Shown here in pieces: positions 2,089 through 58,028 of a DNA stretch of 64,000 bases. Origin of the DNA: Candidatus Riflebacteria bacterium HGW-Riflebacteria-1 (GTDB taxonomy: Bacteria; Muiribacteriota; Ozemobacteria; Ozemobacterales; Ozemobacteraceae). Under the pieces are notes generated by a model. That model had not been told where the DNA came from, made no database searches, and saw nothing but the letters and a program-made list of their open reading frames with translations. The stretch covers positions 64,001-128,000 of the forward strand of contig PGYB01000006.1 of the NCBI GenBank assembly GCA_002839445.1. The letters run 5' to 3'. A program made the position numbers and the translations under genes. How positions within the stretch are numbered: position 1 is the stretch's first letter; each line of letters begins with the position of its first letter.

Positions 2089-4365
2089 TCAGCGCCTGCT
2101 AAATGCCTGAAAAAGATTGGCATAGTCGTCTGTCCACAAACTGCATGCCCGTTCAACAACAATTTCTTCCCAGCGCTTGTAACGCTTTATCGCGGCAAAA
2201 GCCGCAGGGTCTGAGGCAACAGCGACCCATTGCGAGTTGAATATTTGTGCAAAATCATACCAGTCGTAACGTAATGAGTATCTTGTCGTGATGTCTCGCG
2301 AAATCAGGCAATAAAGGCCCAGTTCGTCGCAAATGCGTTTGATAACCGGTGCCAGGTCAAAATAGTTGTTGCTCACGTGAAAAAGCATCAAACCATCCGG
2401 TCTTGTTTTAGACTGATAGAGACGAAAAGCCTCAGTGGTCATGAGGTGAAGCGGAATTGCATCAGACGAATAGGCATCTAAAACCAGAAGATCGTATTTA
2501 TGATCAGGGATGCCCTGCAGGACAACCCGGGCATCGCCAACATGATTTTTCCAGGAAGCCTTTGATTTTGCAAGATAAGTAAACAACTTTGCGTCTTCTG
2601 CAATTTCAACCACTTTCGGGTCTATTTCAAAAAAGTCGAAGTGCTGCCATGGTCGACCATACCAGGCCAGAGTACCGACGCCAAGCCCCACTACTCCAAC
2701 CTGACGAAACCGACGCCCGACCAGCCCGGCTCTAAACGCAGCTCCTATTGGACTTTCCCTTGAATAATAAGCCAGGGGAAAAGCCCTCCGCATGCTGGTT
2801 ATGCGTCGCTCTATGCCATGCATTGTTGTACCATGCTGCAGAGTATAGAAAATATCTGTAAGTCCGGATACTGCCAAGTCCCGGTCGTTTTCTTTACCCT
2901 GGTTGGTTACGCGAGCGACCTTGAGCACGCCAAAAAAACTCCGTGCAGTAAACACAACATCTGAGGCCTTTTTCATCTGCACAAAAGGGCCGGCGGCGAG
3001 AAGAATGACTAAAGGAACCCAGACCAGTTTTTGCATGCGAAAAAAGGCATCGATAAACAGCAACCCGAGCGGCACGAGAAAAATGCCGCCCTGTTGCGCA
3101 AAACGCCTCATGTTGCCTTCATCCAGCCATGCCATTGCTACCATTGCCAGCAGAAACAGAGTATAGATCACGCACTTTCTGGCAAGCGAAAAATCCTGAA
3201 CTGTTAATTTCCGCGACATCGCAGAAGCGAGGATAACGGCAACAAAAAGCGTCAATAAGTATTCTGCCTGTGTCGCTAAAAGCATGGGGGCCAAAATACT
3301 GTTGAACAGGCCACCGAGAACTCCGCCAACTGACATCCAGACATAAAATGAATTCAAAAGCACGGGTGCGGGCCGGTCGTTGGCAAGACGCCCATGAAAA
3401 TACATACAGATCAGGAACATGGCGAGAAGATGTAATGGTATCGTCAGCCACATGCGTTCGACAAGCCCGAGATAATACATGATCATTGCCAGCAGAGCTG
3501 TCGGATACATATAGTTTTCCCATCTGATTTCTCGCCAGCGCGGGCTGCGCGCAAAAACCAGAATGAATGAAATCAGATAAAGTGATAATGGGATTACCCA
3601 CAGAAGCGGCAAAGAAGCAATGTCGGTCGATATATGCGTGGTAACAGCAAGCATGGCGCTGCATGGAACGAAGCCCATGAGGCACCAGAACAGCGACTGG
3701 CGCCAGGTTGACTGAGACTGAGCCGCTGCTGGTATGACGCTGTCTGAAATGTTCTGCGGTTGCCGGCGCTGACCGGTTTGCCAGAAGACAATGCAGCAGA
3801 TGGTTACCAGGCAGGTTTGCAGGACATAAAGAGCTGACCAGAGTTGGCGTTGAACGGTAAGCGTCATGAACGGCTCAATCAGCAGAGGGTAAGCCAGCAG
3901 AGCCAGCAGACTGCCGGTATTACTAGCTGCGTAGAGAAAATAAGGGTCGTGCGAATCTGTTTGCCCCGCCTGCGAATAATATCTCTGCAACAGCGGTGCA
4001 TTGGCTGAGATCATGAAAAACAAAAAACCGATCGAAGCAGACAATCTGGTCATAAGCCAGGTGACCGGATTATTGACGGCCGACCCGGCGGCACTGATAT
4101 CAATATGCAACGGCAGCAGCATAAAACCGCCGGTCATCAAAAGGATATGCAAGGTAGACTGGCGCTGACTGCCTAGATAGCGCAGGGCCTTTTCGGCATA
4201 GAGATATCCGCCCAGCAGCATCAACTGGAAAAAAAGCATGCAGGTAATCCAGACCGCTGGAGCACCGCCCATTGCTGGCAGCAGAAGCTTGCCAACCATT
4301 GGCTGAATCAAAAAAAGCAGGAAGGAGCCGACAAAGATACTCAATGAAAAAATTGCGGCTACCAT
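2089..4365 (-). CDS. Polytopic membrane protein fused to a spermidine-synthase-like (PABS fold) C-terminal domain
   Basis: About 480 hydrophobic N-terminal residues with many TM segments. C-terminal segment VVGLGVGTL...DLLVLDAYSSDAIP resembles the spermidine synthase methyltransferase fold. Confidence 0.65.
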   Translation of the reverse strand: MVAAIFSLSIFVGSFLLFLIQPMVGKLLLPAMGGAPAVWITCMLFFQLMLLGGYLYAEKALRYLGSQRQSTLHILLMTGGFMLLPLHIDISAAGSAVNNPVTWLMTRLSASIGFLFFMISANAPLLQRYYSQAGQTDSHDPYFLYAASNTGSLLALLAYPLLIEPFMTLTVQRQLWSALYVLQTCLVTICCIVFWQTGQRRQPQNISDSVIPAAAQSQSTWRQSLFWCLMGFVPCSAMLAVTTHISTDIASLPLLWVIPLSLYLISFILVFARSPRWREIRWENYMYPTALLAMIMYYLGLVERMWLTIPLHLLAMFLICMYFHGRLANDRPAPVLLNSFYVWMSVGGVLGGLFNSILAPMLLATQAEYLLTLFVAVILASAMSRKLTVQDFSLARKCVIYTLFLLAMVAMAWLDEGNMRRFAQQGGIFLVPLGLLFIDAFFRMQKLVWVPLVILLAAGPFVQMKKASDVVFTARSFFGVLKVARVTNQGKENDRDLAVSGLTDIFYTLQHGTTMHGIERRITSMRRAFPLAYYSRESPIGAAFRAGLVGRRFRQVGVVGLGVGTLAWYGRPWQHFDFFEIDPKVVEIAEDAKLFTYLAKSKASWKNHVGDARVVLQGIPDHKYDLLVLDAYSSDAIPLHLMTTEAFRLYQSKTRPDGLMLFHVSNNYFDLAPVIKRICDELGLYCLISRDITTRYSLRYDWYDFAQIFNSQWVAVASDPAAFAAIKRYKRWEEIVVERACSLWTDDYANLFQAFSRR

Positions 4366-18293: not shown

Positions 18294-21200
18294 TCAACTG
18301 AATGAGCCGTAGGCATGGTCTATTTCGACCTCACCGGACTCGAGCACTCTTGAGTCTTCAATGTTGTGGTAAACCAGAAAGATGCCCTGGCGGCCGTCCA
18401 TAACGACACCGAGCTTGTTCGAAAGTCGGGAGTGGGTGAAATACTTGTGCCGCTTAACCACCGGCTGGCTGCGCAGCCAGTTCCAGTCTATAAAGCCCTC
18501 GCCGGAGTCCTGGCGAACAGAGAAATAACCGATACCCATGGTGGTGACATTATGAAAGAAATGTGAACCCATCGAGGGGTCAACCCTGAAGCCTTCGAGC
18601 GAATACTCAATTATTACCTTGGCATAAGAAGTCTGTGGCCAGGTCACCGGAATGCCGAGCCAGCGATCGCGAGTGCCCCAGCGTCCGGGTCCGAGAAGAA
18701 TGTATTTTCTGCCGGCTTCTTTGTGCTCAAGGTTAAACGCCTCTACTTCGCGTGCCATCTCTTCGGTCTGTGACTTGTCGAAAAGATCAGGATCGATCCA
18801 GACGATGTCGCTGATCTCGTCGATACGGCCGTTACCCATGCCAGAATCAGCGTAGAGCATCAGTTTGTCTTTTTCGATACAGCTCTTATCGATGTTGAAA
18901 TCTTCGCTTTCTCGCAGCATATGTTTGAGTTGCAACAGATAGAACACCGGCTTGTCAAGGTTCTCAGCATCAACGTCTACGGCAAATTCAATCTCTACAG
19001 GAGTTTCGAGAGCTTCTTCTGAAACATTAAGAATATGCTTGATCGTTTTTGCAAGAGGTATTGATTCATACTGCAGAATATTGGCAAAATTGATCACCCT
19101 TGGGCCGCGCATCTGAAGACCAACGTCAAGGCGTTGTTCAAGATGACTCCATGTCGATACTACCTCTTGCAGAGTTCCGTCGGCTTCGGCTGCCGAAATA
19201 TCGAGCTTGACCAGCGTTGCGTCTTCGCCATTAAACAGATCAACTGTGTTCTTTTCGAGGTCGAGAACGGTAAAACGGCGCTGCGAGTTTTTGACCAGCT
19301 CTTCCGGGGTGAGAATCTCTAGTTTGGGAAAAGTCGGGCAGAATCTGAACGATCTTTCGCCACCGACGACATTGCGCCCCAACCCCAGCACCAGCATGCC
19401 AACCCCATCTTCGGGTTGAATGTACGAAAACGGATAGTAGTTAAACGATTGACCGACACCCGAAATCTGCGGGTAAAAATTATGACCGTGCCGTCGCCCG
19501 ACGATCTGTTGAATAACAACCGCCATCTTTTCTTCTTCGATGTTGTAGTTGATCGCGTCGAAATATTCGCGGGCTTCTTTTGAATATACCGAGGCGTATA
19601 CCAGCTTTATTGCCTCTTCAAGCTGCTTGAGGCGCACTTCTGCATCAGGATGATTGTTCGGTATGAAAAAGGTTTCATAAAGGCCTGACATCGAATGCGA
19701 AACCGAGTCTTCCAGTACTCCTGATGAGCGTATGGCCAGCGGGTAAGTAACCTTCTGCAAGACAATGCGCAGGCGATTGAGTATTTTCTCAGACAGTCGG
19801 CTTGCAATGAAGCGGCGTTTGATCGTCGCGTAATCGCGCTCAGACGAGACAAAATCGGCAAGATCGTTGGTCGTGATAAAATTGGTGAATTCATCGACAC
19901 CGATTATAAAGGTCTCAGGTATTCTGACCACGATGTCTGATACCGCTTCAAGCATCGACGAATTATAAAGCAGATAATTCATAAAAGCGATGCCACGACC
20001 TTTGCCGCCAATGGCGCCCTCGGCCAGTTTGCAGATGTGATGCCGGTTGTCGCCAATAAATGATTTATCAAAAGAGATAACCTTGCCGCGGGTCTTCATT
20101 CTGAACACCCAGTTACCCATGTTGATCAAAAAGTCGCGCAGTGACTCGACTTCATCAAATTCAGCAACATGAATACGTGACACAACCTTGGCAATCTGCA
20201 CCTCTCCGCGCGCCAGCAGCCAGGTCGAAAAGTTATTGCGACTGGCATGATACTCAATCGACTCAGCCGGTACAATGCGCAGACAATTGCGAAAATCGCC
20301 CATAGTGCGCGCTCGCGTAATTTCCTGACCCTGTGCGTTTCTGAATACGAAATCGCCAAAACCGAGATTCCGGTAGAAAAATTTAGACAGGCGTTTGGAA
20401 AGGAATTGCGATTCTTTGTGAACAAACGAGGCTCCGATGCGGTTCGCAGCCGATTCAATTTCTGGTTCGGAAGACTGTAGCAGAATTGGCAGGTCTGGTT
20501 GCAGCTCTTTAAGTTTCTTGGCCAGTTTTATACCGGCTTTTTCATCCAATATCCCGTCTTTTTTGTATTTAACATCAGAAATAACGCAGAGCAGGTATTC
20601 TTTATAATGTTCATACTGCTTCATGGCTTCTTCAAAATTTGTTGCCAGGATGATCTTGGGGCGACAACGCATGCGTAATACTTTTTTGCTTTCTTCCTGA
20701 AGCTCTTCTTCGACAAGTTTGGTCGTCTGCCGGATCAGCTCAGAATATAGATGTGGCAGATAGCGTGAATAGTAGCGTATCGAGTCTTCAACAAGCAGTA
20801 TAATGCGCACCTGAGCGATTGCCGTGTCTTTATCTGCATTGCGCCGGTCTTCAATATATTTGATCATCGCCAGAAAGATTTCTGAGTTGCCGTTCCAGAC
20901 AAAAACGTTGTCGTAATGCAACCAGAGATCACCCCGGTTATCAAGCGACTCCAGGTCGGTGTTGTCGTTGAGTAAAAGCAGCACAGGCAGGTCAGGCCAG
21001 AGTTCGTGAATTTTCTGTCCGCAATTGATGGTATCAGTTTTGCTCAATCGGCTCAGCACAACCACGAGGTCGAACTTGCGGCGCTCAAGCATCTCGATCG
21101 CCTCATCGGCAGACGTTACGCTGGTAATGCGCGGCGCACTGGTCAGATTGAGATTAAAATATTCACCAAAGATTTTTTCAGCGAGAAGGCCGTCCTGTTC

Positions 21201-21329
21201 TAGGGAAAATGCATCGAATACAGTCGCTACCAGCAGCAGTTCGCGCACTTTAAAGCGCATCAGGTCGTGAAAAATTTCGCTGTCAGACTTGAATTTTTTA
21301 AAGACCTGCATCAGTTCATCGTTGTGCAT
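18294..21329 (-). CDS. Large protein with tandem receiver-like (REC) domains fused to a PEP/pyruvate-utilising (PPDK/PEP-synthase N-terminal, ATP-grasp) domain
   Basis: N-terminal CheY-like segments. Central KLAEGAIGGKGRGIAFMNYLL resembles the GGKGANLAEM nucleotide-binding motif. 1011 aa. Confidence 0.65.
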   Translation of the reverse strand: MHNDELMQVFKKFKSDSEIFHDLMRFKVRELLLVATVFDAFSLEQDGLLAEKIFGEYFNLNLTSAPRITSVTSADEAIEMLERRKFDLVVVLSRLSKTDTINCGQKIHELWPDLPVLLLLNDNTDLESLDNRGDLWLHYDNVFVWNGNSEIFLAMIKYIEDRRNADKDTAIAQVRIILLVEDSIRYYSRYLPHLYSELIRQTTKLVEEELQEESKKVLRMRCRPKIILATNFEEAMKQYEHYKEYLLCVISDVKYKKDGILDEKAGIKLAKKLKELQPDLPILLQSSEPEIESAANRIGASFVHKESQFLSKRLSKFFYRNLGFGDFVFRNAQGQEITRARTMGDFRNCLRIVPAESIEYHASRNNFSTWLLARGEVQIAKVVSRIHVAEFDEVESLRDFLINMGNWVFRMKTRGKVISFDKSFIGDNRHHICKLAEGAIGGKGRGIAFMNYLLYNSSMLEAVSDIVVRIPETFIIGVDEFTNFITTNDLADFVSSERDYATIKRRFIASRLSEKILNRLRIVLQKVTYPLAIRSSGVLEDSVSHSMSGLYETFFIPNNHPDAEVRLKQLEEAIKLVYASVYSKEAREYFDAINYNIEEEKMAVVIQQIVGRRHGHNFYPQISGVGQSFNYYPFSYIQPEDGVGMLVLGLGRNVVGGERSFRFCPTFPKLEILTPEELVKNSQRRFTVLDLEKNTVDLFNGEDATLVKLDISAAEADGTLQEVVSTWSHLEQRLDVGLQMRGPRVINFANILQYESIPLAKTIKHILNVSEEALETPVEIEFAVDVDAENLDKPVFYLLQLKHMLRESEDFNIDKSCIEKDKLMLYADSGMGNGRIDEISDIVWIDPDLFDKSQTEEMAREVEAFNLEHKEAGRKYILLGPGRWGTRDRWLGIPVTWPQTSYAKVIIEYSLEGFRVDPSMGSHFFHNVTTMGIGYFSVRQDSGEGFIDWNWLRSQPVVKRHKYFTHSRLSNKLGVVMDGRQGIFLVYHNIEDSRVLESGEVEIDHAYGSFS

Positions 21330-27477: not shown

Positions 27478-28455
27478 TTAGCTGAACGCGAATATCAGAA
27501 TGTTTCCGACAATCAATATGAATACATACCAGAAACGGCAGATTTTATCGAGATATATTGCCATATCAAAGCGGCGGCGCTTGGCGTAATTGTTGTTAAC
27601 CACGGTCTGCACCAGCGCGAGAAAAATGACGACGTAAAAGAGCATGAAAATTTTGTCTGACATCAGCAGATAGCCTACAGAAGGCAGCGCGTCAGCCTGG
27701 GAATTGTGCAGCGCGATTGCCGAGAGAAGTGCGGTGATGCAGATACCGCACTGCGCCTCGAACTCGCTGGCGTTTATGTAGAATACCACGTAAGCCATGC
27801 CAGCGATGATGAACAGCGGCAAAATGAACTTGATCAGATGCGGCAGAAACAGTCGTTTCAGGTTGACTCTGAATGTGAGGCGCGAATAACTCGAAGTTTT
27901 TTTTGAGCCAAGCCCAAAGTCGGTCTTGTAGTGGTGAGCGTCAATGTCGCACGCCGCGCCGTTGCGTTGCCAGTCTGGCACCAGCATTTCCGGCTCGAGC
28001 CAGAGGTTGTAGTCTGCCGAACTTTCCGTGTCAGGGGTGAATAGTATCTTTTCAACGGTGTTTTCAGCATCTTCGATCACTATAGGAAGACTTTGCCGGT
28101 CAAATGGATATGACTGCAACCTGAAATGGCCGCGAAACCTTCCTTTAATGCGTTGCGACCACTGTTTTTTGCCCGACGCACTCGTGGCACTGGCAATTGG
28201 CGTGGCGCTCTCGATGTTGCCATTCATGAATTCGATGTTTTCTGGCACCCAGCTGCTTTCGGGAGGCGCCTTATACCAGATGTAAAAATCAGCGAAGAAT
28301 TCGCTCTCTTTAACATCGAGATGCGCGATGTCGAGAATATACAAGCCAATTTCGATCTTGGTGGGTTGCGTCTCAGTCGCGTAAACAGACGGCAAGACCA
28401 GCAGTGTCATGAATAAAACGGCAAACAGAGTAATCTTCAGCTTGTGAATTAGCAT
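27478..28455 (-). CDS. Prokaryotic pentameric ligand-gated ion channel (pLGIC, GLIC/ELIC-like) homologue
   Basis: Signal peptide, then about 200 aa of beta-rich extracellular domain with SYPFDRQSLPIVIED (the FPFD loop motif, no cysteines). This is followed by four hydrophobic helices M1-M4 and a post-M2 ALPSVGYL motif (compare GLIC SLPKVSYV). Confidence 0.75.
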   Translation of the reverse strand: MLIHKLKITLFAVLFMTLLVLPSVYATETQPTKIEIGLYILDIAHLDVKESEFFADFYIWYKAPPESSWVPENIEFMNGNIESATPIASATSASGKKQWSQRIKGRFRGHFRLQSYPFDRQSLPIVIEDAENTVEKILFTPDTESSADYNLWLEPEMLVPDWQRNGAACDIDAHHYKTDFGLGSKKTSSYSRLTFRVNLKRLFLPHLIKFILPLFIIAGMAYVVFYINASEFEAQCGICITALLSAIALHNSQADALPSVGYLLMSDKIFMLFYVVIFLALVQTVVNNNYAKRRRFDMAIYLDKICRFWYVFILIVGNILIFAFS

Positions 28456-45678: not shown

Positions 45679-46479
45679 TCAGCGATTGTAGTAATTTATG
45701 TTGGCTTTTTGCCAGCTGGTGCGTTTTTCGAGGTCGCGCAGACTGACCTGACCTTCGACCGGGTTGTTGTCCATGCTGGGGCCCATGAGCATCACGTGGG
45801 CGTTTTTGCCGGCAATTTCGAGAACCATAACCTGCTGCGCGGTCGGTACTTTGACGTCGCCGAGCTTAAGATATTTAGCGGTAATCGCGTATTTTTGCGT
45901 GCGTTTTGGAATAATGGAAACCTGTTCTTTCAGCCTGGCGATTTCTGACGGGCCAAACTGTTTGTCTTCGCGAAACTGCGCGATAACCTGATTATAAAGG
46001 GCCATGACCAGCATACTCGACTTCAGAATTGCTGCCTTAAAACCGCTATCGATGCGCAGATTTTTCATGACCCCGGTCATTCCTTCGAAGAGTTGAAACT
46101 TGGCTGCGTAAATCTGGGCGAGAATACGCAACTCTTCGGGCAGGCGCGGTTCAAGTTGACGGTAAAAGCCGATCGCGTTAGTGAATTTTGTTTTTACTTC
46201 AGGCATCTTGCCGAGCACGTTCAAATATTTGAGATCATGAAAGTAGCCCTCAAATTCGTCGATGAAAGAAAACATCTGCATAACCTGTTCACGATGGTTA
46301 ACTGGTTTTTTCGAGGCAGCTGACAGCGTAACCGCCTTTGGTTGCGGGGTCATGCAGCCGGCGCAGAATGTGGCGTTATCAGGCATTTCGGCACTGCAGC
46401 CGATACATGACTTGGCAGAAAGCTGTGGACAGAGTGCACTCAACATCATAATTGCAATGAGCAGATAGCGGTGTTTCAT
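45679..46479 (-). CDS. Secreted hypothetical protein with an N-terminal zinc-ribbon-like CxxC...CxxC motif
   Basis: GGAGA RBS. Signal peptide MKHRYLLIAIMMLSALCPQLSA. Motif CIGCSAEMPDNATFCAGC. Confidence 0.55.
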   Translation of the reverse strand: MKHRYLLIAIMMLSALCPQLSAKSCIGCSAEMPDNATFCAGCMTPQPKAVTLSAASKKPVNHREQVMQMFSFIDEFEGYFHDLKYLNVLGKMPEVKTKFTNAIGFYRQLEPRLPEELRILAQIYAAKFQLFEGMTGVMKNLRIDSGFKAAILKSSMLVMALYNQVIAQFREDKQFGPSEIARLKEQVSIIPKRTQKYAITAKYLKLGDVKVPTAQQVMVLEIAGKNAHVMLMGPSMDNNPVEGQVSLRDLEKRTSWQKANINYYNR

Positions 46480-46612
46480 ATTTTCTCCAGCAAGTGTATT
46501 CGCTACATGATGCCTTTTTTTTTGCAGCAAGGCAATACCGCTCTATCGTTTTATGTTTGAGCTTTAGACTTTGCTCTTGCCAAAATCATGAAGTTGCATA
46601 GTTTATGAGCTT

Positions 46613-47203
46613 ATGGTTGAAAGAAAAAAATCGGCGCGCAAGATGGCGACTGCATTCTTTTGCAGCGCTGCTCTGGCAATGCTTACTGTTTTTTGCCTCG
46701 AACCGGCACAGGCCGGCGGCGAACAGTCTTTCCCACCATTTTATGTGAGAAAGGTCGCACCTGGTGATCAGTTCACCCCTTTTTCACTCGTCGATCTCAA
46801 CGGAAAAACCTGGTCAAACCGCGACTACCTTACGCGGCCGCTGTTGTTGATCACCGGCAAGTGGGAGTTGCGGCATGATCTGCGCAAATGGGCAGAGCAC
46901 CTTAACCTTAATTACATTCAACAGGCTGATATATTATGGGTCTTCAACCCGTCAAATAATTCCTGGTTTACTGATCGACTAAAAAGATCCCAGGAAGCCT
47001 TTACAATCTTTAATCCCAAGGTTCCAACTGTTATTGATTCGCACTCGATGATCGGGCGCAGTCTCAAAATCGAGTATGATATTCCGACTATCATTGGTAT
47101 CGACCGGCAAAACCGTTTTCAGTTCACCCTCGAAAGCCCATTTAATAAGCCTGGCAGCGATAAGCTGGCCGCGCTGGTTCGAACAAAGCTTTTGCACAAC
47201 TGA
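46613..47203 (+). CDS. Secreted hypothetical protein
   Basis: Signal peptide ...MATAFFCSAALAMLTVFCLEPAQA. Start is either 46613 or 46643. Confidence 0.5.
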   Translation: MVERKKSARKMATAFFCSAALAMLTVFCLEPAQAGGEQSFPPFYVRKVAPGDQFTPFSLVDLNGKTWSNRDYLTRPLLLITGKWELRHDLRKWAEHLNLNYIQQADILWVFNPSNNSWFTDRLKRSQEAFTIFNPKVPTVIDSHSMIGRSLKIEYDIPTIIGIDRQNRFQFTLESPFNKPGSDKLAALVRTKLLHN

Positions 47204-47525: not shown

Positions 47526-49196
47526 ATGAACTATTCAGATGTAGCAGCGTGCCCGGCGGTCTTGCAGCAGAAACATATTGCGTGGTGGCAGGGTGATCAC
47601 GAACAGCTGTCCGTGATGTCTGAAGCCGTAGCCAGAACTCTTTCCGAAATCAACCGGCCTGTCTTTGTCATTCTCAAAGATGGCCAGCTTGCTTTTGCCG
47701 CAGCCGGCACCCTTTCTTTTGATCTGACAACAAGACCGGTCAAAAGTCTGCCGCTGCTCGCCATGCTCCCCCCCTGCCCGCTTGAGAATCTTGGTGACAC
47801 CTCGTTTTGCCGCGATCACGGTCTGAAACTGCCTTATGTTGGCGGTTCGATGGCGCACGGCATCAGTTCGCCAGAGATTGCCATCGCGCTTGGCCAGCAC
47901 GGGATGATAGGTTTTATCGGCGCTGCCGGCGATTCCCCGGCCAAGGTCGAAAAAGCTATTTTACGTATGAAAAGCCTGCCTGAACCAATACCGTTCGGCT
48001 TTAACCTTATTCACAGCCCCAACGAGAAAGGGCTTGAAGACGAAATCGTCGATCTATATCTCAGACATGAAGTGAGATTGCTCGAAGCCTCGGCTTTCCT
48101 CGCCATGTCATTGCCGCTGGTGCGTTATCGCGTCACCGGTATTCATGAAGATGAAAACGGCAATATTATCACGCCAAACCGCATTATTGCAAAAGTCAGC
48201 CGTGTTGAAGTCGCGTCGAAGTTCTTCGCGCCGCCGCCGGATAAAATGTTGCAAAAGCTTGTGGACACAGGAGTGATTACTGAGCAGCAGGCAAAGCTGG
48301 CCGCACAAATTCCGGTAGCGCAGGATCTGACTTCTGAAGCAGACTCTGGTGGGCATACTGACAATCGTCCGGCGGTATCACTGCATCCAACAATGGTCGC
48401 GCTTAAAAACCGCATGCAAAAAGAATATAACTATAAACAGCCGTTGCGCGTCGGTTTTGGCGGCGGCATCGGCACGCCGGCTTCGGCGGCAGCCTCGTTC
48501 GCCATGGGCGCTGCCTACATCGTGGTCGGCTCGGTGCATCAGGCATGTAATGAATCCGGCACTTCTGACGCGGCGCGAGCTATGCTTGCCGGCGCCGGTC
48601 AGGCAGATATTGCCATGGCTCCAGCTGGCGACATGTTTGAAATGGGTGTAACCGTGCAGGTTCTCAAGCGCGGCACCATGTTCGCCATGCGTGCCCAGAA
48701 ACTCTATGAAATTTACCGCAAATACGAAAGCATCGAGGCAATACCTGCAGCTGATCGCCAGATGCTCGAAAAATCAGTCTTTCAGGAAAACCTCGACACG
48801 ATCTGGGCGCAGACTGCCGATTTTTTCAGGCAGCGCGATCCATCACAACTCGAGAAAGCCGAAAACGACCCGCACCACAAAATGGCACTGATTTTCAGAT
48901 GGTATCTCGGCAAGTCTCCGCGCTGGGCAGTTGCCGGCGAAGAAGCGCGCAAGGTCGACTACCAGATATGGTGTGGCGCTGCCATGGGCGCCTTTAACGA
49001 ATGGGCGAAAAACAGTTTTTTTGAAGACCAGATAAATCGAAAAGTGGTCGACGTAGCCATGAACCTGCTTTATGGTGCAGCTCTTGAACTGCGCCTGACG
49101 CAGCTGCGCAACCAGGGCATTGTTCTGCAGGCAGCTCTGAATCAGGTTTCCCCCAGGCCGCTTGACCAGATAGAAAAACTTGCTGACGCCTGCTGA
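47526..49196 (+). CDS. PfaD-family enoyl reductase (FMN-dependent, nitronate-monooxygenase-like fold; trans-acting ER of PUFA/polyketide synthases)
   Basis: LKLPYVGGSMAHGISSPEIAIALGQHGMIGFIGAAG matches the PfaD core. About 550 aa with an N-terminal extension. Confidence 0.7.
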   Translation: MNYSDVAACPAVLQQKHIAWWQGDHEQLSVMSEAVARTLSEINRPVFVILKDGQLAFAAAGTLSFDLTTRPVKSLPLLAMLPPCPLENLGDTSFCRDHGLKLPYVGGSMAHGISSPEIAIALGQHGMIGFIGAAGDSPAKVEKAILRMKSLPEPIPFGFNLIHSPNEKGLEDEIVDLYLRHEVRLLEASAFLAMSLPLVRYRVTGIHEDENGNIITPNRIIAKVSRVEVASKFFAPPPDKMLQKLVDTGVITEQQAKLAAQIPVAQDLTSEADSGGHTDNRPAVSLHPTMVALKNRMQKEYNYKQPLRVGFGGGIGTPASAAASFAMGAAYIVVGSVHQACNESGTSDAARAMLAGAGQADIAMAPAGDMFEMGVTVQVLKRGTMFAMRAQKLYEIYRKYESIEAIPAADRQMLEKSVFQENLDTIWAQTADFFRQRDPSQLEKAENDPHHKMALIFRWYLGKSPRWAVAGEEARKVDYQIWCGAAMGAFNEWAKNSFFEDQINRKVVDVAMNLLYGAALELRLTQLRNQGIVLQAALNQVSPRPLDQIEKLADAC

Positions 49197-49911
49197 TACA
49201 AATCCTGATTTTACCAGACCACGCGCTGATATCTGGATAATCGATTCCGGCCGTTTTGCCGACAGCGCTGAAACATTGCGCGGTTTACTGGCGCCAGATG
49301 AGTTGACACGCTATGAGCGCTTTGCCTGTCGGCAGACCGCTCTTACCTGGTTGACGGCAAGAGCCAGTCTGCGCTTTCTGCTTGGCAGATATCTCGATCT
49401 GCCGGCGCGCGAGCTCGCGATTCATACCAGCGAAAATGGCAAACCATTTGTCGAAAACATGTATGATCTCTACTTCAATGTCAGCCACAGTGCTAATATT
49501 GTTGTGATTGCCATGACCGGCTGGGCGGTCGGCATAGACGTCGAAAATCTCAGCCGTAAGGTCGACAGCGCGGCGGTGCTGCGCCGCTTCTTTTCGCCGA
49601 CTGAGCAGGCCAGCTGCGCCGCAAATCAGGTGATCGACGCGCAGAAAACTTTTTTCAGAGGCTGGACACGCAAAGAGGCTGTGCTAAAAGCTACTGGCGA
49701 AGGCATTGCCGGCCTCGCGCACAACGAAATCAACTTTGCCCCCGGCTTGACCAGAGCCATGCTCACCTATCGTGGCTCACAAGAGGCTGCCAGCAGTTGG
49801 TTTTTTTACGAGTTCGAACCGGCACAAGGCTATATCGCCGCACTCGCCTGCCAGTCGCCTGCGCTGGCTATAAGCGAAAAGCGACTGCAGCCAGCTTCCC
49901 TCAACGACTGA
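49180..49911 (+). CDS. 4'-phosphopantetheinyl transferase (Sfp/EntD type)
   Basis: GIDVE, FSPTEQ and WTRKEAVLKATG motifs. Non-ATG (TTG) start overlaps the upstream stop. Confidence 0.7.
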   Translation: MLTPADTNPDFTRPRADIWIIDSGRFADSAETLRGLLAPDELTRYERFACRQTALTWLTARASLRFLLGRYLDLPARELAIHTSENGKPFVENMYDLYFNVSHSANIVVIAMTGWAVGIDVENLSRKVDSAAVLRRFFSPTEQASCAANQVIDAQKTFFRGWTRKEAVLKATGEGIAGLAHNEINFAPGLTRAMLTYRGSQEAASSWFFYEFEPAQGYIAALACQSPALAISEKRLQPASLND

Positions 49912-54737: not shown

Positions 54738-54770
54738 GCGGTCGGTGATATCACCGGCCGCTTTTTATTT
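54738..54770. terminator. Rho-independent terminator after the transporter gene
   Basis: gcggtcggtga-ta-tcaccggccgc stem followed by tttttattt. Confidence 0.65.
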
Positions 54771-54785
54771 GCGCCACTATGGGAC

Positions 54786-54864
54786 TTACGATTGCGATTA
54801 CGATTACGATTACGATTAAGAGAACGAGAACGAGAACGAGACGAGACGAGACGAGAACGAAACA
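54786..54864. repeat. Microsatellite-like tract: (ACGATT)x5 followed by (GAGAAC)x3-(GAGAC)x3-GAGAAC
   Basis: ttacgattgcgattacgattacgattacgattaagagaacgagaacgagaacgagacgagacgagacgagaacgaaac, 60 nt upstream of the first pseudopilin-like gene. Confidence 0.7.
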
Positions 54865-54926
54865 AGTCGAATTGATTGGCGCGGTTATGATTTCGCAGAC
54901 TGGCAATTTGCGGTATACTCTCAGAA

Positions 54927-55442
54927 ATGCTGAGCCACTACTCAAAAACTTCTGCGACAACACTGGTTGAGATTCTTATCGCGACAACGATTCTCGCGTT
55001 CACCATGGCGCCGATCGTCGCCATCTTTACCTTCGCCTCGCGCAGCATGGGTTCAAGCGTTCACCGCATTCAGGCGCAGTTTCTCGCGCACGCTGTTCTT
55101 GAATCGATAAAGGCCGAAGTTCACCGCAATCCTTCCGCGATCAATCAGTATCCCAGCCGCTTCGAAGTTTCGGCGGTGCGCAAACCGCTTGGCTTTTTCG
55201 CAACGTCGCGGGTTAATTTTTTCAACAACGTGCTCGGGCCTGACAAGCCGATCACGCCAGATTCGCCGCTCTACAAGGAGTTTGACCAGTTTCGCATAAT
55301 AGTTACTGTTCTCGGCACCGGCAAGGTGTCTGAGCTCAGTGTTACCGCCGAGTGGGCCTTTGACGGCAAAGATCAGAAGCTCGAAATAATTGGAAAAATC
55401 GACTCGCGACCGTACCGCTTTTCCAAATTCGAGCGCTATTAA
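54927..55442 (+). CDS. Prepilin-type N-terminal domain protein (minor pseudopilin-like) with Ala at -1
   Basis: MLSHYSKTSA|TTLVEILIATTILAF: a short leader, then the [FT]TL[IV]E motif with Glu at +5 and a hydrophobic helix. Confidence 0.5.
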   Translation: MLSHYSKTSATTLVEILIATTILAFTMAPIVAIFTFASRSMGSSVHRIQAQFLAHAVLESIKAEVHRNPSAINQYPSRFEVSAVRKPLGFFATSRVNFFNNVLGPDKPITPDSPLYKEFDQFRIIVTVLGTGKVSELSVTAEWAFDGKDQKLEIIGKIDSRPYRFSKFERY

Positions 55443-55446
55443 AGTT

Positions 55447-55944
55447 ATGCGAGAAAATCACGCAACAAACGCCCCGGCCCAATCGCGTCAAATCGTTCAG
55501 CGGCGCGCTTTTACGCTGGTCGAAGTGGTGGTCAGCATCGCGCTGTTTGCGGCGCTGGTCATCGTTGTCAGCTCGATGTACTCGTTTATCAGGCGCTCTT
55601 TTGTCAGGGTCGACAGCAAAAGCGCCGCGAGCTCTCAGATCGAAAGGTTTCTGCTGCGCCTTGACAACGAACTGCGCTCGGCCAGAGATGTCACTGTGCC
55701 GTCTTCTGACGCGCGATCAAACTGTCTGACCTTCGTTAACAAAGAAGGCAACGAGATTGCCTACGAATTTTCTGAAGATGGCACGGTAACGCGAATTGAT
55801 TTTCATAACGACAATCAGCGCGTGCTGATGCATGATGTTGCCAGTCTCAGCTTTTCGCGATTTACCCGCGGACTTGTCGAAATCTCGATCACGATCGGTC
55901 AGGTTCCGATTTTGACCGCGATTCATGTCTGGAATCTGCCATGA
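55447..55944 (+). CDS. Prepilin-type N-terminal domain protein (GspI/J-like pseudopilin) with Ala at -1
   Basis: ...QRRA|FTLVEVVVSIALFAALVIV almost matches the GFTLLEVMVALAIFA consensus except for G to A at -1. Start is either 55390 or 55447. Confidence 0.5.
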   Translation: MRENHATNAPAQSRQIVQRRAFTLVEVVVSIALFAALVIVVSSMYSFIRRSFVRVDSKSAASSQIERFLLRLDNELRSARDVTVPSSDARSNCLTFVNKEGNEIAYEFSEDGTVTRIDFHNDNQRVLMHDVASLSFSRFTRGLVEISITIGQVPILTAIHVWNLP

Positions 55945-56495
55945 CAACACTTGCCAGAAAATATTCGCGTCGCCAGCTTTCGTTACCTGCCACCGACAAA
56001 CGTGCTGGCATGGCCATTCCCATGGTGCTCGGATTCATTTTCGTCGCTACCATACTTGGCACTACGCTGCTGTTTCTGTCAAAAACCCGCGGCGCTGATA
56101 CGGTGCGCACGATCGGCAGGTTTCAGCACCAGCACCTGACTCAATCTGGCCTCAGCGAAGCGCTCGCAATAATCAAGCCAATGCGCATCTCTGAATTAAT
56201 CGCCAACCGCGGCGTGCAATGGAACTTTAACACTGTGCAACAGAACTTCGGAAACGCTGTCGGCTGGTGCGAAGTCACAGTCAAAACCCGAGGCAGCAGC
56301 GAACTCGAAATTGTCTCGACTGGCTGCTGGCAAGATCGCGACTCGCCTCTCCTGCGCCGCAGTTTTTCGTGTGTCGCGCGCTATTCAGAGACCAGGTCTA
56401 CTGAGTCAAACCTGTATTTAACTATGGTAAAGATAAATGGCGAATGGAAAGTCGGCAACTTCAGCGAAGAACTGCCAAAAAGCGATAACGAGTAA
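55941..56495 (+). CDS. GspK/PilX-like pseudopilin-type protein (no Glu +5)
   Basis: KRAGMAIPMVLGFIFVATILGTTLLFL follows the R-x-G-[MV]-A-[LI] pattern of GspK/PilX N-termini. It overlaps the previous gene's stop. Confidence 0.45.
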   Translation: MTTLARKYSRRQLSLPATDKRAGMAIPMVLGFIFVATILGTTLLFLSKTRGADTVRTIGRFQHQHLTQSGLSEALAIIKPMRISELIANRGVQWNFNTVQQNFGNAVGWCEVTVKTRGSSELEIVSTGCWQDRDSPLLRRSFSCVARYSETRSTESNLYLTMVKINGEWKVGNFSEELPKSDNE

Positions 56496-56505
56496 CTCAA
56501 GCTTT

Positions 56506-56541
56506 GCTTGAAATCTTGAATCTTGAACCTTGAACCTTGAA
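56506..56541. repeat. Tandem heptamer repeats (YCTTGAA) x4-5 immediately upstream of a membrane-protein gene
   Basis: gcttgaa-a-tcttgaa-tcttgaa-ccttgaa-ccttgaa, ending 16 nt before ATG 56557 and overlapping its RBS region. Confidence 0.7.
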
Positions 56542-56556
56542 AGGAACCTGTCTGGT

Positions 56557-56946
56557 ATGAAAGTGTTAGCTGTTTTGACCATGTTCCCGAATCTTCTGAT
56601 ATTGTTCGTTTCTTTCTACTCGCACCTCTTTGCCATACCCCTGATCAAAGATATGCTCGCCAAGCTGTCGCCACTGGCGCAGCAGCGTTACCAGGAAAAT
56701 GTTGTGATAACGATCAGCGGCTACACAGCCGAATTCTGCGACATGCTGTTTAACTGGTGGTTTATCATAATTCCATTACTGGCGCTTTTTTTAAACCTGG
56801 TTTTCTATCAGCTGAAGAAAACGAGCGAAATCGCCGCATTTGCCAGCGTGTTGTTATTGATCACGCTGGCTTCGACAGTTTCTTTTTTGAGCATGTCAGT
56901 GAATTCGCTGGCAGTCTTCATGCTCGTAGCCAATTTTATAAAGTAG
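56557..56946 (+). CDS. Small integral membrane protein, hypothetical
   Basis: AAGGAA RBS. Four hydrophobic helices. The ORF-track start 56530 is a TTG inside the repeat tract. Confidence 0.5.
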   Translation: MKVLAVLTMFPNLLILFVSFYSHLFAIPLIKDMLAKLSPLAQQRYQENVVITISGYTAEFCDMLFNWWFIIIPLLALFLNLVFYQLKKTSEIAAFASVLLLITLASTVSFLSMSVNSLAVFMLVANFIK

Positions 56947-57038: not shown

Positions 57039-58028
57039 TTATTCGCTGGTAGCCCAGTCAATGACCTTTTTGGCCCGCCACGGCAGTGACATCAGATTGG
57101 TTTTGCGCAGATGACGATGGAAAGTCTCAAGCTCTTTAAACTTTGCAGGGTCCGGGTTCCGGCCTACAACGGCGCTGAGGGCCTGCTGGCTTACTTCGTT
57201 CCAAGATTTAATCCAGTAGCGAAATTGTGGAACAGAGAGAACGGTCAGTTCCTTGACGTCTTTTTTGACCAGCCCCTGCAGCTGATTAAGATATTCTGGA
57301 GTGATAGCTCTGGTAACATTCTGAATACCGCTCGAAACACAGTTTGCTCCGAAAATATTGTATTTCTGAAATATTAGTTCATCACCACGATCCGGGTGTT
57401 CAGCTCTGAGCGCCCGCAGATGGGTCATGGCGGCCAGTCGCGCGCACTCTTCAACATGGGCGAGGAAAAACAGCTGCAGATCAAGTTTTTTCGGGTTCAC
57501 CACATGGCGGAATTTGCTATTCAGCGGGCTGCGGCTTTCGTAATATTCAAGCGAGAAAACGCGCATCTGAATGAGCTGCATACCAACAATGCCCTGAACG
57601 CTGAAATCCTTTTCTGGTCCGGTGCCCATTAATAGTCCCCTGATCTTTTTGGTCTGCCCGCTGCTATTTTTGATTGTGACTTCTTCTTTAAAATTAAAAA
57701 TAGTGGCAAAATGAAAGGCTCCCGGAAGAATCGGCAGATTAAGAATTTCGCTGCTGGAAATCTGATCGAGTCTGAAAGTGCCGCTCCAGAGTTCTTTGCT
57801 GTCATGAATACTGAAAAGCTTTACTGCCTGTCCTTCAGCTATGGCTCCAACTGTCGAAACTCTGTCAGTTTTGGGAAAAAGCAGACGTCGGGCGTAGCCA
57901 TTCTGCAGAACTGTGTTTTTAATGCTCTCAGCCAGGTCGTCGTTGCAGAATTCGAATCCTGATGCAAAGACCGGGGAAAGAGCAAGCAGAAGTGTCAGGG
58001 TTAAAACAAATTTCAATGTTTTTTTCAT
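57039..58028 (-). CDS. Secreted hypothetical protein, lower GC than surrounding genes
   Basis: Signal peptide MKKTLKFVLTLTLLLALSPVFASG. No recognisable motif. Confidence 0.55.
   Translation of the reverse strand: MKKTLKFVLTLTLLLALSPVFASGFEFCNDDLAESIKNTVLQNGYARRLLFPKTDRVSTVGAIAEGQAVKLFSIHDSKELWSGTFRLDQISSSEILNLPILPGAFHFATIFNFKEEVTIKNSSGQTKKIRGLLMGTGPEKDFSVQGIVGMQLIQMRVFSLEYYESRSPLNSKFRHVVNPKKLDLQLFFLAHVEECARLAAMTHLRALRAEHPDRGDELIFQKYNIFGANCVSSGIQNVTRAITPEYLNQLQGLVKKDVKELTVLSVPQFRYWIKSWNEVSQQALSAVVGRNPDPAKFKELETFHRHLRKTNLMSLPWRAKKVIDWATSE

Follow-up and report, generated by a model that had tools for sequence, protein, structure and literature searches.

Which filament could be served by three small genes whose products look like prepilins, two of them with alanine where glycine is expected at the prepilin peptidase cleavage site, and with no assembly machinery encoded in sight? 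The question is raised by positions 54927-56495 of the window, meaning here the whole stretch of DNA that was analysed, 64 kb from a Riflebacteria MAG. A preliminary description had pointed out, in this interval, three consecutive small genes with class III signal peptide-like N-termini. Both the coordinates and the motifs agree with the ORF list, in which three consecutive ORFs lie on the forward strand at exactly these positions:

54927-55442, forward strand: P1, resembling I-type minor pilins, 171 aa
55447-55944, forward strand: P2, predicted J-type minor pilin, 165 aa
55941-56495, forward strand: P3, putative Glu5-less cap-type minor pilin, 184 aa

The answer proposed here, which we regard as probable, is that the three genes are one operon for a minor-pilin complex of three subunits, part of a type IV filament whose machinery and major pilin are encoded elsewhere in the genome. 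Type IV pilus, competence pilus and type II secretion system (T2SS) pseudopilus are the filaments considered under this reading.

The coding layout is very compact. Only 4 nt separate P1 from P2, and the P3 gene, third in the operon, overlaps the P2 stop codon through the sequence ATGA; the three genes are translationally coupled within one operon. The start of P2 is placed at ATG 55447 by the gene callers and by the orthologues, the ORF list also offering TTG 55390. The preliminary description had left room for upstream in-frame starts that would restore a canonical glycine site. These were checked and are ruled out, none being possible: position 54927 is the first start codon past the preceding stop, with no in-frame start upstream of it, so that re-annotation of P1 cannot recover a canonical glycine. 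The orthologous P1 leaders are of the same length.

[quoted passage not shown] The N-terminus of P1 reads MLSHYSKTSA↓TTLVEILIATTILAF, where the arrow marks the predicted cleavage site (MLSHYSKTSA↓TTLVEILIA). Its 10-residue leader ends at Ala10 (54954-54956), and the predicted mature start is TTLVE, with Glu+5 at 54969-54971. The +1 residue of P1 is Thr, Ile or Leu, not Phe, which is a further harmless deviation. P2 starts with MRENHATNAPAQSRQIVQRRA↓FTLVEVVVSIALFA, a basic leader of 21 residues (...QRRA↓FTLVEVVVSIALFA) ending at Ala21 (55507-55509), followed by the predicted mature start FTLVE, with Glu+5 at 55522-55524. The 23-residue leader of P3 (...ATDKRAG↓MAIPMVLGFIFVATILG) ends at Gly23 (56007-56009), and the junction reads ...KRAG↓MAIPMVLGF. 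The predicted mature start of P3 is MAIPM, with Pro+4 at 56019-56021 and Met at +5, hence a mature signature M1-A2-I3-P4-M5 that lacks Glu5. What had been noticed earlier about these sites is thus correct, namely alanine at -1 together with Glu+5 in the first two proteins (P1 Ala10, P2 Ala21), and a third protein without Glu+5; the latter has Met at +5, Gly at -1 and Pro at +4. P1 and P2 fit the PilFind motif, [GAS]-X4-[DE] plus at least 14 uncharged residues. Glu+5 is invariant among the orthologues of both proteins (15/15 for P1, 15/15 for P2) and is absent from P3, as in K-type cap subunits.

Profile searches give a graded picture of the family relationships. P2 scores above the curated cut-offs of two prepilin N-terminal models, PF07963 N_methyl (23.9 vs 21.2 bits) and TIGR02532 (17.8 vs 16.3). 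Its sole near-full-length match is ComGF, which comes just under the cut-off with the Pfam model (PF15980, 26.2 vs 27, residues 58-149) and well under it with the NCBIfam model (NF041002, 32.4 vs 80 bits, residues 20-149); GspJ (TIGR01711) reaches 20.3 against a cut-off of 64.85. Across the P2 family, ComGF and PRK10557 match 15/15 members and GspJ 14/15, the best E-value for ComGF being 3.4e-11. PRK10557 is a 'prepilin peptidase-dependent protein' model, which we take to be that of E. coli PpdB. P2 is therewith predicted to be a J-type protein.

The case of P1 is less clear-cut, with 13.5 bits for PF07963 N_methyl against the cut-off of 21.2. The I-type profiles PilV, XpsI and GspI all match 15/15 members of its family, ComGE matching 14/15, and the best E-value is 1.3e-6 (PilV). 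The scores of the window protein are all below the cut-offs, namely 23.3 vs 52.2 bits for PilV (TIGR02523), 17.1 vs 44.35 for GspI (TIGR01707) and 17.9 vs 49 for ComGE (NF041013), and its matches are limited to the N-terminal ~60 aa. On these profile scores P1 resembles the I-type minor pilin family, the equivalog level being missed. The AlphaFold2 (AF2) model of P1 comprises a helix (residues 7-67) and a beta-sheet (pLDDT 72.7).

P3 has no match in Pfam or NCBIfam, GspK, PilX_N and ComGG included, and only one member of its family reaches ComGG_2, with an E-value of 0.18. The HMM check proposed in the preliminary description therefore holds for P2, which passes both the N_methyl and TIGR02532 cut-offs, but not for P1, which stays sub-threshold, nor for P3, which has no match. 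Searched exhaustively against 1.84 billion representatives, the HMM of the P3 family gave 15 matches at E<=1e-3 and no tie to a known family; the P3 family is thus small and lineage-specific. Within it, the motif G↓MAIP(M/L)V is kept in 11/11 members, the residue at +5 being Met or Leu.

The predicted structure of P3 brings further insight. Its AF2 model consists of a helix (residues 26-78) followed by a six-stranded antiparallel sheet (pLDDT 70.1). A Foldseek search against the PDB gave nothing significant. The model matches minor-pilin structures, including GspK, to which ~95 residues corresponding to the pilin fold are aligned. Since the alignment covers the pilin fold only, the helical insertion domain of GspK is absent from P3. 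The proteins had been described as shorter than canonical GspK or PilX. This is right for GspK, P3 being about half its size, but not for PilX, since the P. aeruginosa protein is similar in size to P3 (184 aa); ComGG is smaller than P3. The models of P1 and P3 share a ~50-residue N-terminal helix and an antiparallel sheet, a lollipop fold predicted with moderate confidence (pLDDT 70-73) from shallow alignments of 12-15 sequences. Searched against PDB sequences, the profiles of the three families returned only weak N-terminal-helix matches to pilins, or noise, and nothing relevant for P3.

Taken in gene order, these assignments follow a familiar pattern, since the succession I-type, J-type and Glu5-less protein is the order of gspIJK, pilVWX and comGEFG. 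The designation as a minor-pseudopilin-like cassette is upheld at the family level, with I-type matches in 15/15 P1 members, J-type matches in 14-15/15 P2 members, and a Glu5-less P3 with a pilin-like model.

Across Riflebacteria MAGs the trio is conserved as a stand-alone operon. The window itself matches contigs of 'Candidatus Riflebacteria bacterium HGW-Riflebacteria-1' (P0017) at 100% identity. Intact, adjacent orthologues of all three genes are found down to ~50% identity, in unrelated genomic contexts. The full trio with flanks of at least 2 kb is found at the seven loci checked (L007-L012 and L017), in L007 on a 5.2 Mb chromosome. All three genes are also present on the 3.3 kb contig of L013, and L016 carries P1-like and P2-like genes and, downstream of them, an ORF whose N-terminus reads G↓LAIPIVL. 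The trio extends to L020 and L023, distant low-GC relatives reached through the P3 HMM search. Wherever the flank suffices, the genes adjoin each other with coupled starts, and the flanking genes are unrelated between clades. In a scan of GTDB species representatives, the family was found in MAGs labelled Riflebacteria/Ozemobacteraceae, and in several others named just 'uncultured bacterium'. One family-bearing contig has the label Methylomirabilis, probably through a binning error. An AsmA/YhdP-like gene is present, suggesting a probable diderm envelope.

Across the whole 64 kb, no large ORF gave a Pfam match to T2SSE, T2SSF, secretin or Peptidase_A24, nor is there any machinery gene among the annotated called genes of the 10 kb beyond the right end of the window. 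The absence of machinery within 10 kb that had been reported at the outset is thereby borne out and extended to the 64 kb window plus 10 kb on the right. Up to +-10 kb around the trio, the called genes of L007-L009, as annotated with Pfam, include no machinery gene, and none was seen for L010-L017 by ORF listing and prepilin-motif scan alone. The motif scan revealed no further prepilin-like ORF, H-type included, in the window and up to +-10 kb at the homologous loci (less on short contigs). Many experimentally verified pilins sit in operons without biogenesis genes (PMC3244431), and the orphan status of the trio is thus ordinary. A literature search on Riflebacteria pili found nothing relevant.

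Comparison with known systems helps to place the trio. The closest precedents for its isolation are E. coli ppdA-ppdB-ygdB-ppdC and P. aeruginosa fimU-pilVWXY1E, which are stand-alone minor-pilin operons apart from the machinery genes. The trio shares with them its distance from the genes for ATPase, platform, peptidase and secretin. However, these operons encode four pilins (H, I, J and K), with PilY1 in addition in Pseudomonas, whereas the trio has neither an H-type protein nor a PilY1-like adhesin. Set against the GspI-GspJ-GspK and XcpV-W-X tip (PDB 3CI0, 5VTM), the trio stays under the curated cut-offs with all its scores, its P3 is without the large helical insertion domain of GspK, and it lies outside any gsp operon and has no GspH or GspG. 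ComGE-ComGF-ComGG are likewise small proteins encoded in the same order, with a third subunit devoid of Glu5, but the scores of the trio are sub-equivalog (ComGF 32 vs 80 bits). In contrast to comGEFG, it is found outside a comG operon with its ATPase, platform and major pilin, and in a Riflebacteria MAG, not in a Firmicute.

Another point of comparison is the PilABC complex of Streptococcus (S.) sanguinis. The class III signal peptide of PilA is degenerate, lacking Glu5 and having an uncommon Pro4, and the protein is a structural homologue of the I subunit that is the first to join a complex of three pilins located at the tip (PMC9934059). P3 shares this Pro4/no-Glu5 signature with PilA (PDB 7O5Y), at an identity of 9%. 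The partner subunits differ, PilB and PilC being large adhesin pilins of modular build, P1 and P2 small proteins without modules; the PilABC genes lie inside the pil machinery locus, whereas the trio is stand-alone. The Verru_Chthon cassette (TIGR02596-02600; Verrucomicrobia, Chthoniobacter) is also a lineage-specific, multi-gene set of proteins with N-methylation motifs. Its protein C gives weak matches to 10/15 P1 and 12/15 P2 members. These matches cover the N-terminal helix only (17 vs 256 bits), and protein sizes and gene number differ. Since every cut-off of the curated equivalog models is missed, the trio is at that level not a member of GspI, GspJ, GspK, ComGE or ComGF. It is best filed as a lineage-specific minor-pilin tip complex, of a kind already known.

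How such a complex might work can be outlined from the crystal structures of GspIJK and XcpVWX, taken as analogues, and from the model set out in PMC9934059. As in GspI-J-K, PilV-W-X or ComGE-F-G, each protein would insert into the cytoplasmic membrane via its class III signal peptide, and a PilD-type prepilin peptidase would trim the short basic leader after Ala in P1 and P2 or after Gly in P3. The I-type P1 and the J-type P2 would then pair in the membrane, with P3 capping the pair from on top, a position suggested by its lack of Glu5 and its Pro4. The resulting P1-P2-P3 trimer would prime the major pilin to polymerise beneath it, remaining itself at the filament tip. Processing, complex formation and tip location are inferred from this analogy, and the filament served is an inference as well.

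A more specific version of this outline is put forward tentatively. The trio might be a self-sufficient minimal tip complex in which I and J subunits are joined by a small PilA-like cap with Pro4 and no Glu5, making it a 'rudimentary HIJK' of a candidate phylum that is probably diderm, with a peptidase that processes Ala(-1) as well as Gly(-1). If so, the repeated Gly/Ala toggling described below would show that the peptidase handles Ala(-1) and Gly(-1) alike.

As to the filament served, the trio could belong to a competence (Com-type) DNA-uptake pilus and be the Riflebacteria equivalent of ComGE/ComGF/ComGG, which we consider rather doubtful. ComGF is the best as well as the sole near-full-length match of P2 (26.2 vs 27; family best E 3.4e-11), ComGE is matched in 14/15 P1 members, a TfoX_N gene is located ~8.5 kb downstream on the same contig, and a DprA gene ~4 kb downstream in L007. 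The ComGF-like P2, TfoX_N and DprA weakly favour a competence-type pilus. However, every Com match stays below the curated cut-offs, P1 fits PilV and GspI better than it fits ComGE, and no ComGA, ComGB or ComGC is found nearby. Moreover, the TfoX and DprA neighbours vary across loci, so that their presence may be a coincidence.

A role of the trio as the pseudopilin tip (GspI/J/K) of a T2SS appears unlikely. The GspI/J/K similarities, together with a probable diderm envelope, leave room for a T2SS or a type IVa pilus. Against the T2SS, GspK is about twice as large as P3, which is devoid of its helical insertion domain, neither GspH nor GspG is encoded nearby, and pseudopilin genes in known T2SS loci are normally embedded in the gsp operon.

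The residue at position -1 is the other peculiarity of the locus. It is Ala in 9/15 and Gly in 6/15 P1 orthologues, Ala in 8/15 and Gly in 7/15 P2 orthologues, and Gly in 11/11 members of the P3 family. The -1 sites of P1 and P2 vary independently and all four combinations occur across genomes:

Ala in P1 and Ala in P2: the window, L010
Gly in P1 and Gly in P2: L007, L008
Gly in P1 and Ala in P2: L009, L014, L017
Ala in P1 and Gly in P2: L011, L012, L013, L016

The switch between Ala and Gly is a one-nucleotide GGN/GCN change, which has occurred repeatedly. Distant relatives have Gly at -1 in all three proteins (RIMG↓MSLLE, TKKG↓FTLIE and RHG↓MAIP). Judged from these alignments, Ala(-1) is a substitute for Gly that this lineage tolerates and that drifts, and not a regulatory device.

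The preliminary description had seen in Ala(-1) the sign of an atypical peptidase or of regulated processing. Such a reading, in which a specialised prepilin peptidase or a deliberately slowed processing of P1 and P2 would account for the alanine, can draw on the fact that Ala(-1) is truly present in both window proteins, and on the PilA mutagenesis of Strom and Lory in 1991, where the G-1A variant was reportedly cleaved less efficiently. According to one review, the last residue of bacterial leaders is 'invariably' Gly (PMC4471445), which makes Ala(-1) a minority state, yet a recognised one. Indeed, the canonical prepilin motif is given as (A/G)X4(D/E) in the PilFind paper, with [GAS] at -1 and cleavage by PilD at glycine or alanine (PMC3244431). 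Close orthologues swap Gly and Ala independently at the two sites, in four combinations, and distant relatives have the canonical Gly. Because P3 has Gly and P1 and P2 have Ala within one operon, a single peptidase must handle both residues in the same cell. The atypical-peptidase explanation is very improbable in view of these observations, and the earlier suggestion is not retained.

The view that the three are no pilins at all, and just unrelated small bitopic membrane proteins with helices resembling class III signal peptides by chance, could invoke the lack of a family match for P3, the sub-threshold, helix-restricted matches of P1 and the absence of machinery in view, but is hardly credible given the invariant Glu+5 of P1 and P2 orthologues and the conserved gene trio.

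Several consequences follow for annotation and for pilin biology. The sources that name P1, P3 and their relatives call them 'hypothetical protein'; they become recognisable as parts of an I-J-cap minor-pilin operon. The trio implies that a type IV filament is built by Riflebacteria. The family offers a clean natural case of Gly/Ala interchange at the prepilin cleavage site, and a Pro4/no-Glu5 cap like S. sanguinis PilA is found outside Firmicutes. Neither the Gly/Ala interchange nor the Pro4 cap challenges current models of type IV filaments.

The surroundings of the trio were also searched for transcription signals and additional partners:

54738..54761, forward strand: intrinsic terminator of the upstream CitMHS_2 transporter gene, 10-bp stem with 8 GC pairs, then TTTTTATTT
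54892..54919, forward strand: promoter-like site TTCGCA-16-TATACT from a consensus scan, putative function
56557..56946, forward strand: polytopic membrane protein of 129 aa, 61 nt past P3, no family match

The identity of the upstream transporter is clear (PF16980, 2e-154), and its terminator is the left boundary of the pilin transcription unit. The -10 box of the promoter-like site ends 7 nt 5' of the P1 ATG, so that the mRNA would be leaderless or nearly so, and the (G)TTATACT-N7-ATG layout is kept in the four closest species (L010-L013). The upstream terminator and the promoter-like site before P1 together make the trio its own transcription unit. Two other readings of the upstream region were discarded. 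A sigma-54 promoter in CTGGCAATTTGC upstream of P1 was rejected by eye, the GG-to-GC spacing being 8, not 10. There is no evidence that the tandem repeats of hexamers and pentamers at 54786-54860 bring about phase variation, the 212-bp intergenic region being identical in six independent assemblies.

On the other side, no forward-strand terminator was found between P3 and the gene of the 129-aa membrane protein, which is possibly co-transcribed with the trio. This protein was rejected as a fourth component of the conserved unit, being absent from distant loci; no counterpart was seen beside the trio in L007-L009. Its counterpart lies directly downstream of the trio in L010, and ~1.4 kb downstream of it in L012.

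The start of the operon formed by the three minor-pilin-like genes, P1 (54927-55442), P2 (55447-55944) and P3 (55941-56495), all on the + strand, is closely preceded by a -10-like box, (G)TTATACT (window 54912-54929), which is kept in the window and in its four closest relatives (loci L010-L013), and whose end lies only 7 nt from the P1 ATG. From this short distance, the operon mRNA is predicted to be leaderless in these five cases. The more distant homologous loci (L007-L009, L014 and L017) have instead, some 45 nt upstream, a TATAAT box with an AGG-rich leader. Dense microsatellite-like tandem repeats are found 5' of P1, in a promoter-proximal intergenic position, and a heptamer repeat lies on the other side of the trio:

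54786-54860, TTACGA x5.5, GAGAAC x7.3 and ACGAG x6.2
56515-56541, CTTGAAC x3.9, in the 61 nt that separate P3 from the downstream gene of a 129-aa membrane protein

Six independent assemblies of the window species all have the same repeats at 54786-54860, and thus give no sign of phase variation through repeat number.

One labelled carrier falls outside the Riflebacteria and Ozemobacteraceae labels. Contig DYKG01000025.1 (L016), binned as 'Candidatus Methylomirabilis sp.', encodes P1- and P2-like proteins (about 51-55% identity), with a downstream ORF of N-terminus G|LAIPIVL. Since the other labelled trio carriers are all Riflebacteria or Ozemobacteraceae, this contig has probably been mis-binned, rather than reflecting a horizontal transfer.

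In the source contig, the trio is followed about 8.5 kb downstream by a gene with a TfoX_N domain (L001 18562-18930, at about 64.5 kb, just outside the window), and in an Ozemobacteraceae chromosome, about 4 kb downstream, by a DprA (DNA_processg_A) gene (L007 14434-15288). These non-conserved neighbours are possible hints of a link to competence. In L008, another homologous locus, a faint ComGC_C match comes from a very large protein (1854 aa), whose gene (18545-20471, - strand) lies some 8 kb away from the trio and is covered by the locus for its C-terminal part only.

Elsewhere in the window, domain matches were obtained for these genes:

18294-21329, - strand, 1011-aa fusion of response-regulator receiver and pyruvate-phosphate-dikinase-type ATP-binding (PPDK_N) domains
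27478-28455, - strand, 325-aa protein matching neurotransmitter-gated (Cys-loop/pentameric) ion channels over ligand-binding and transmembrane domains
47526-49911, + strand, PfaD-like enoyl reductase (NMO, FabD helical insert and PfaD_N domains), then an Sfp-type 4'-phosphopantetheinyl transferase

The 325-aa protein is a prokaryotic pLGIC homologue, and the 47526-49911 pair may belong to, or be left over from, a pathway of the polyunsaturated fatty acid or polyketide type. No Pfam match was obtained for the products of four sizeable window ORFs, 2089-4365 (-, 758 aa), 45679-46530 (-, 283 aa), 46613-47203 (+, 196 aa) and 57039-58028 (-, 329 aa); the N-terminus of the last one, judged by eye, looks hydrophobic and signal-peptide-like.
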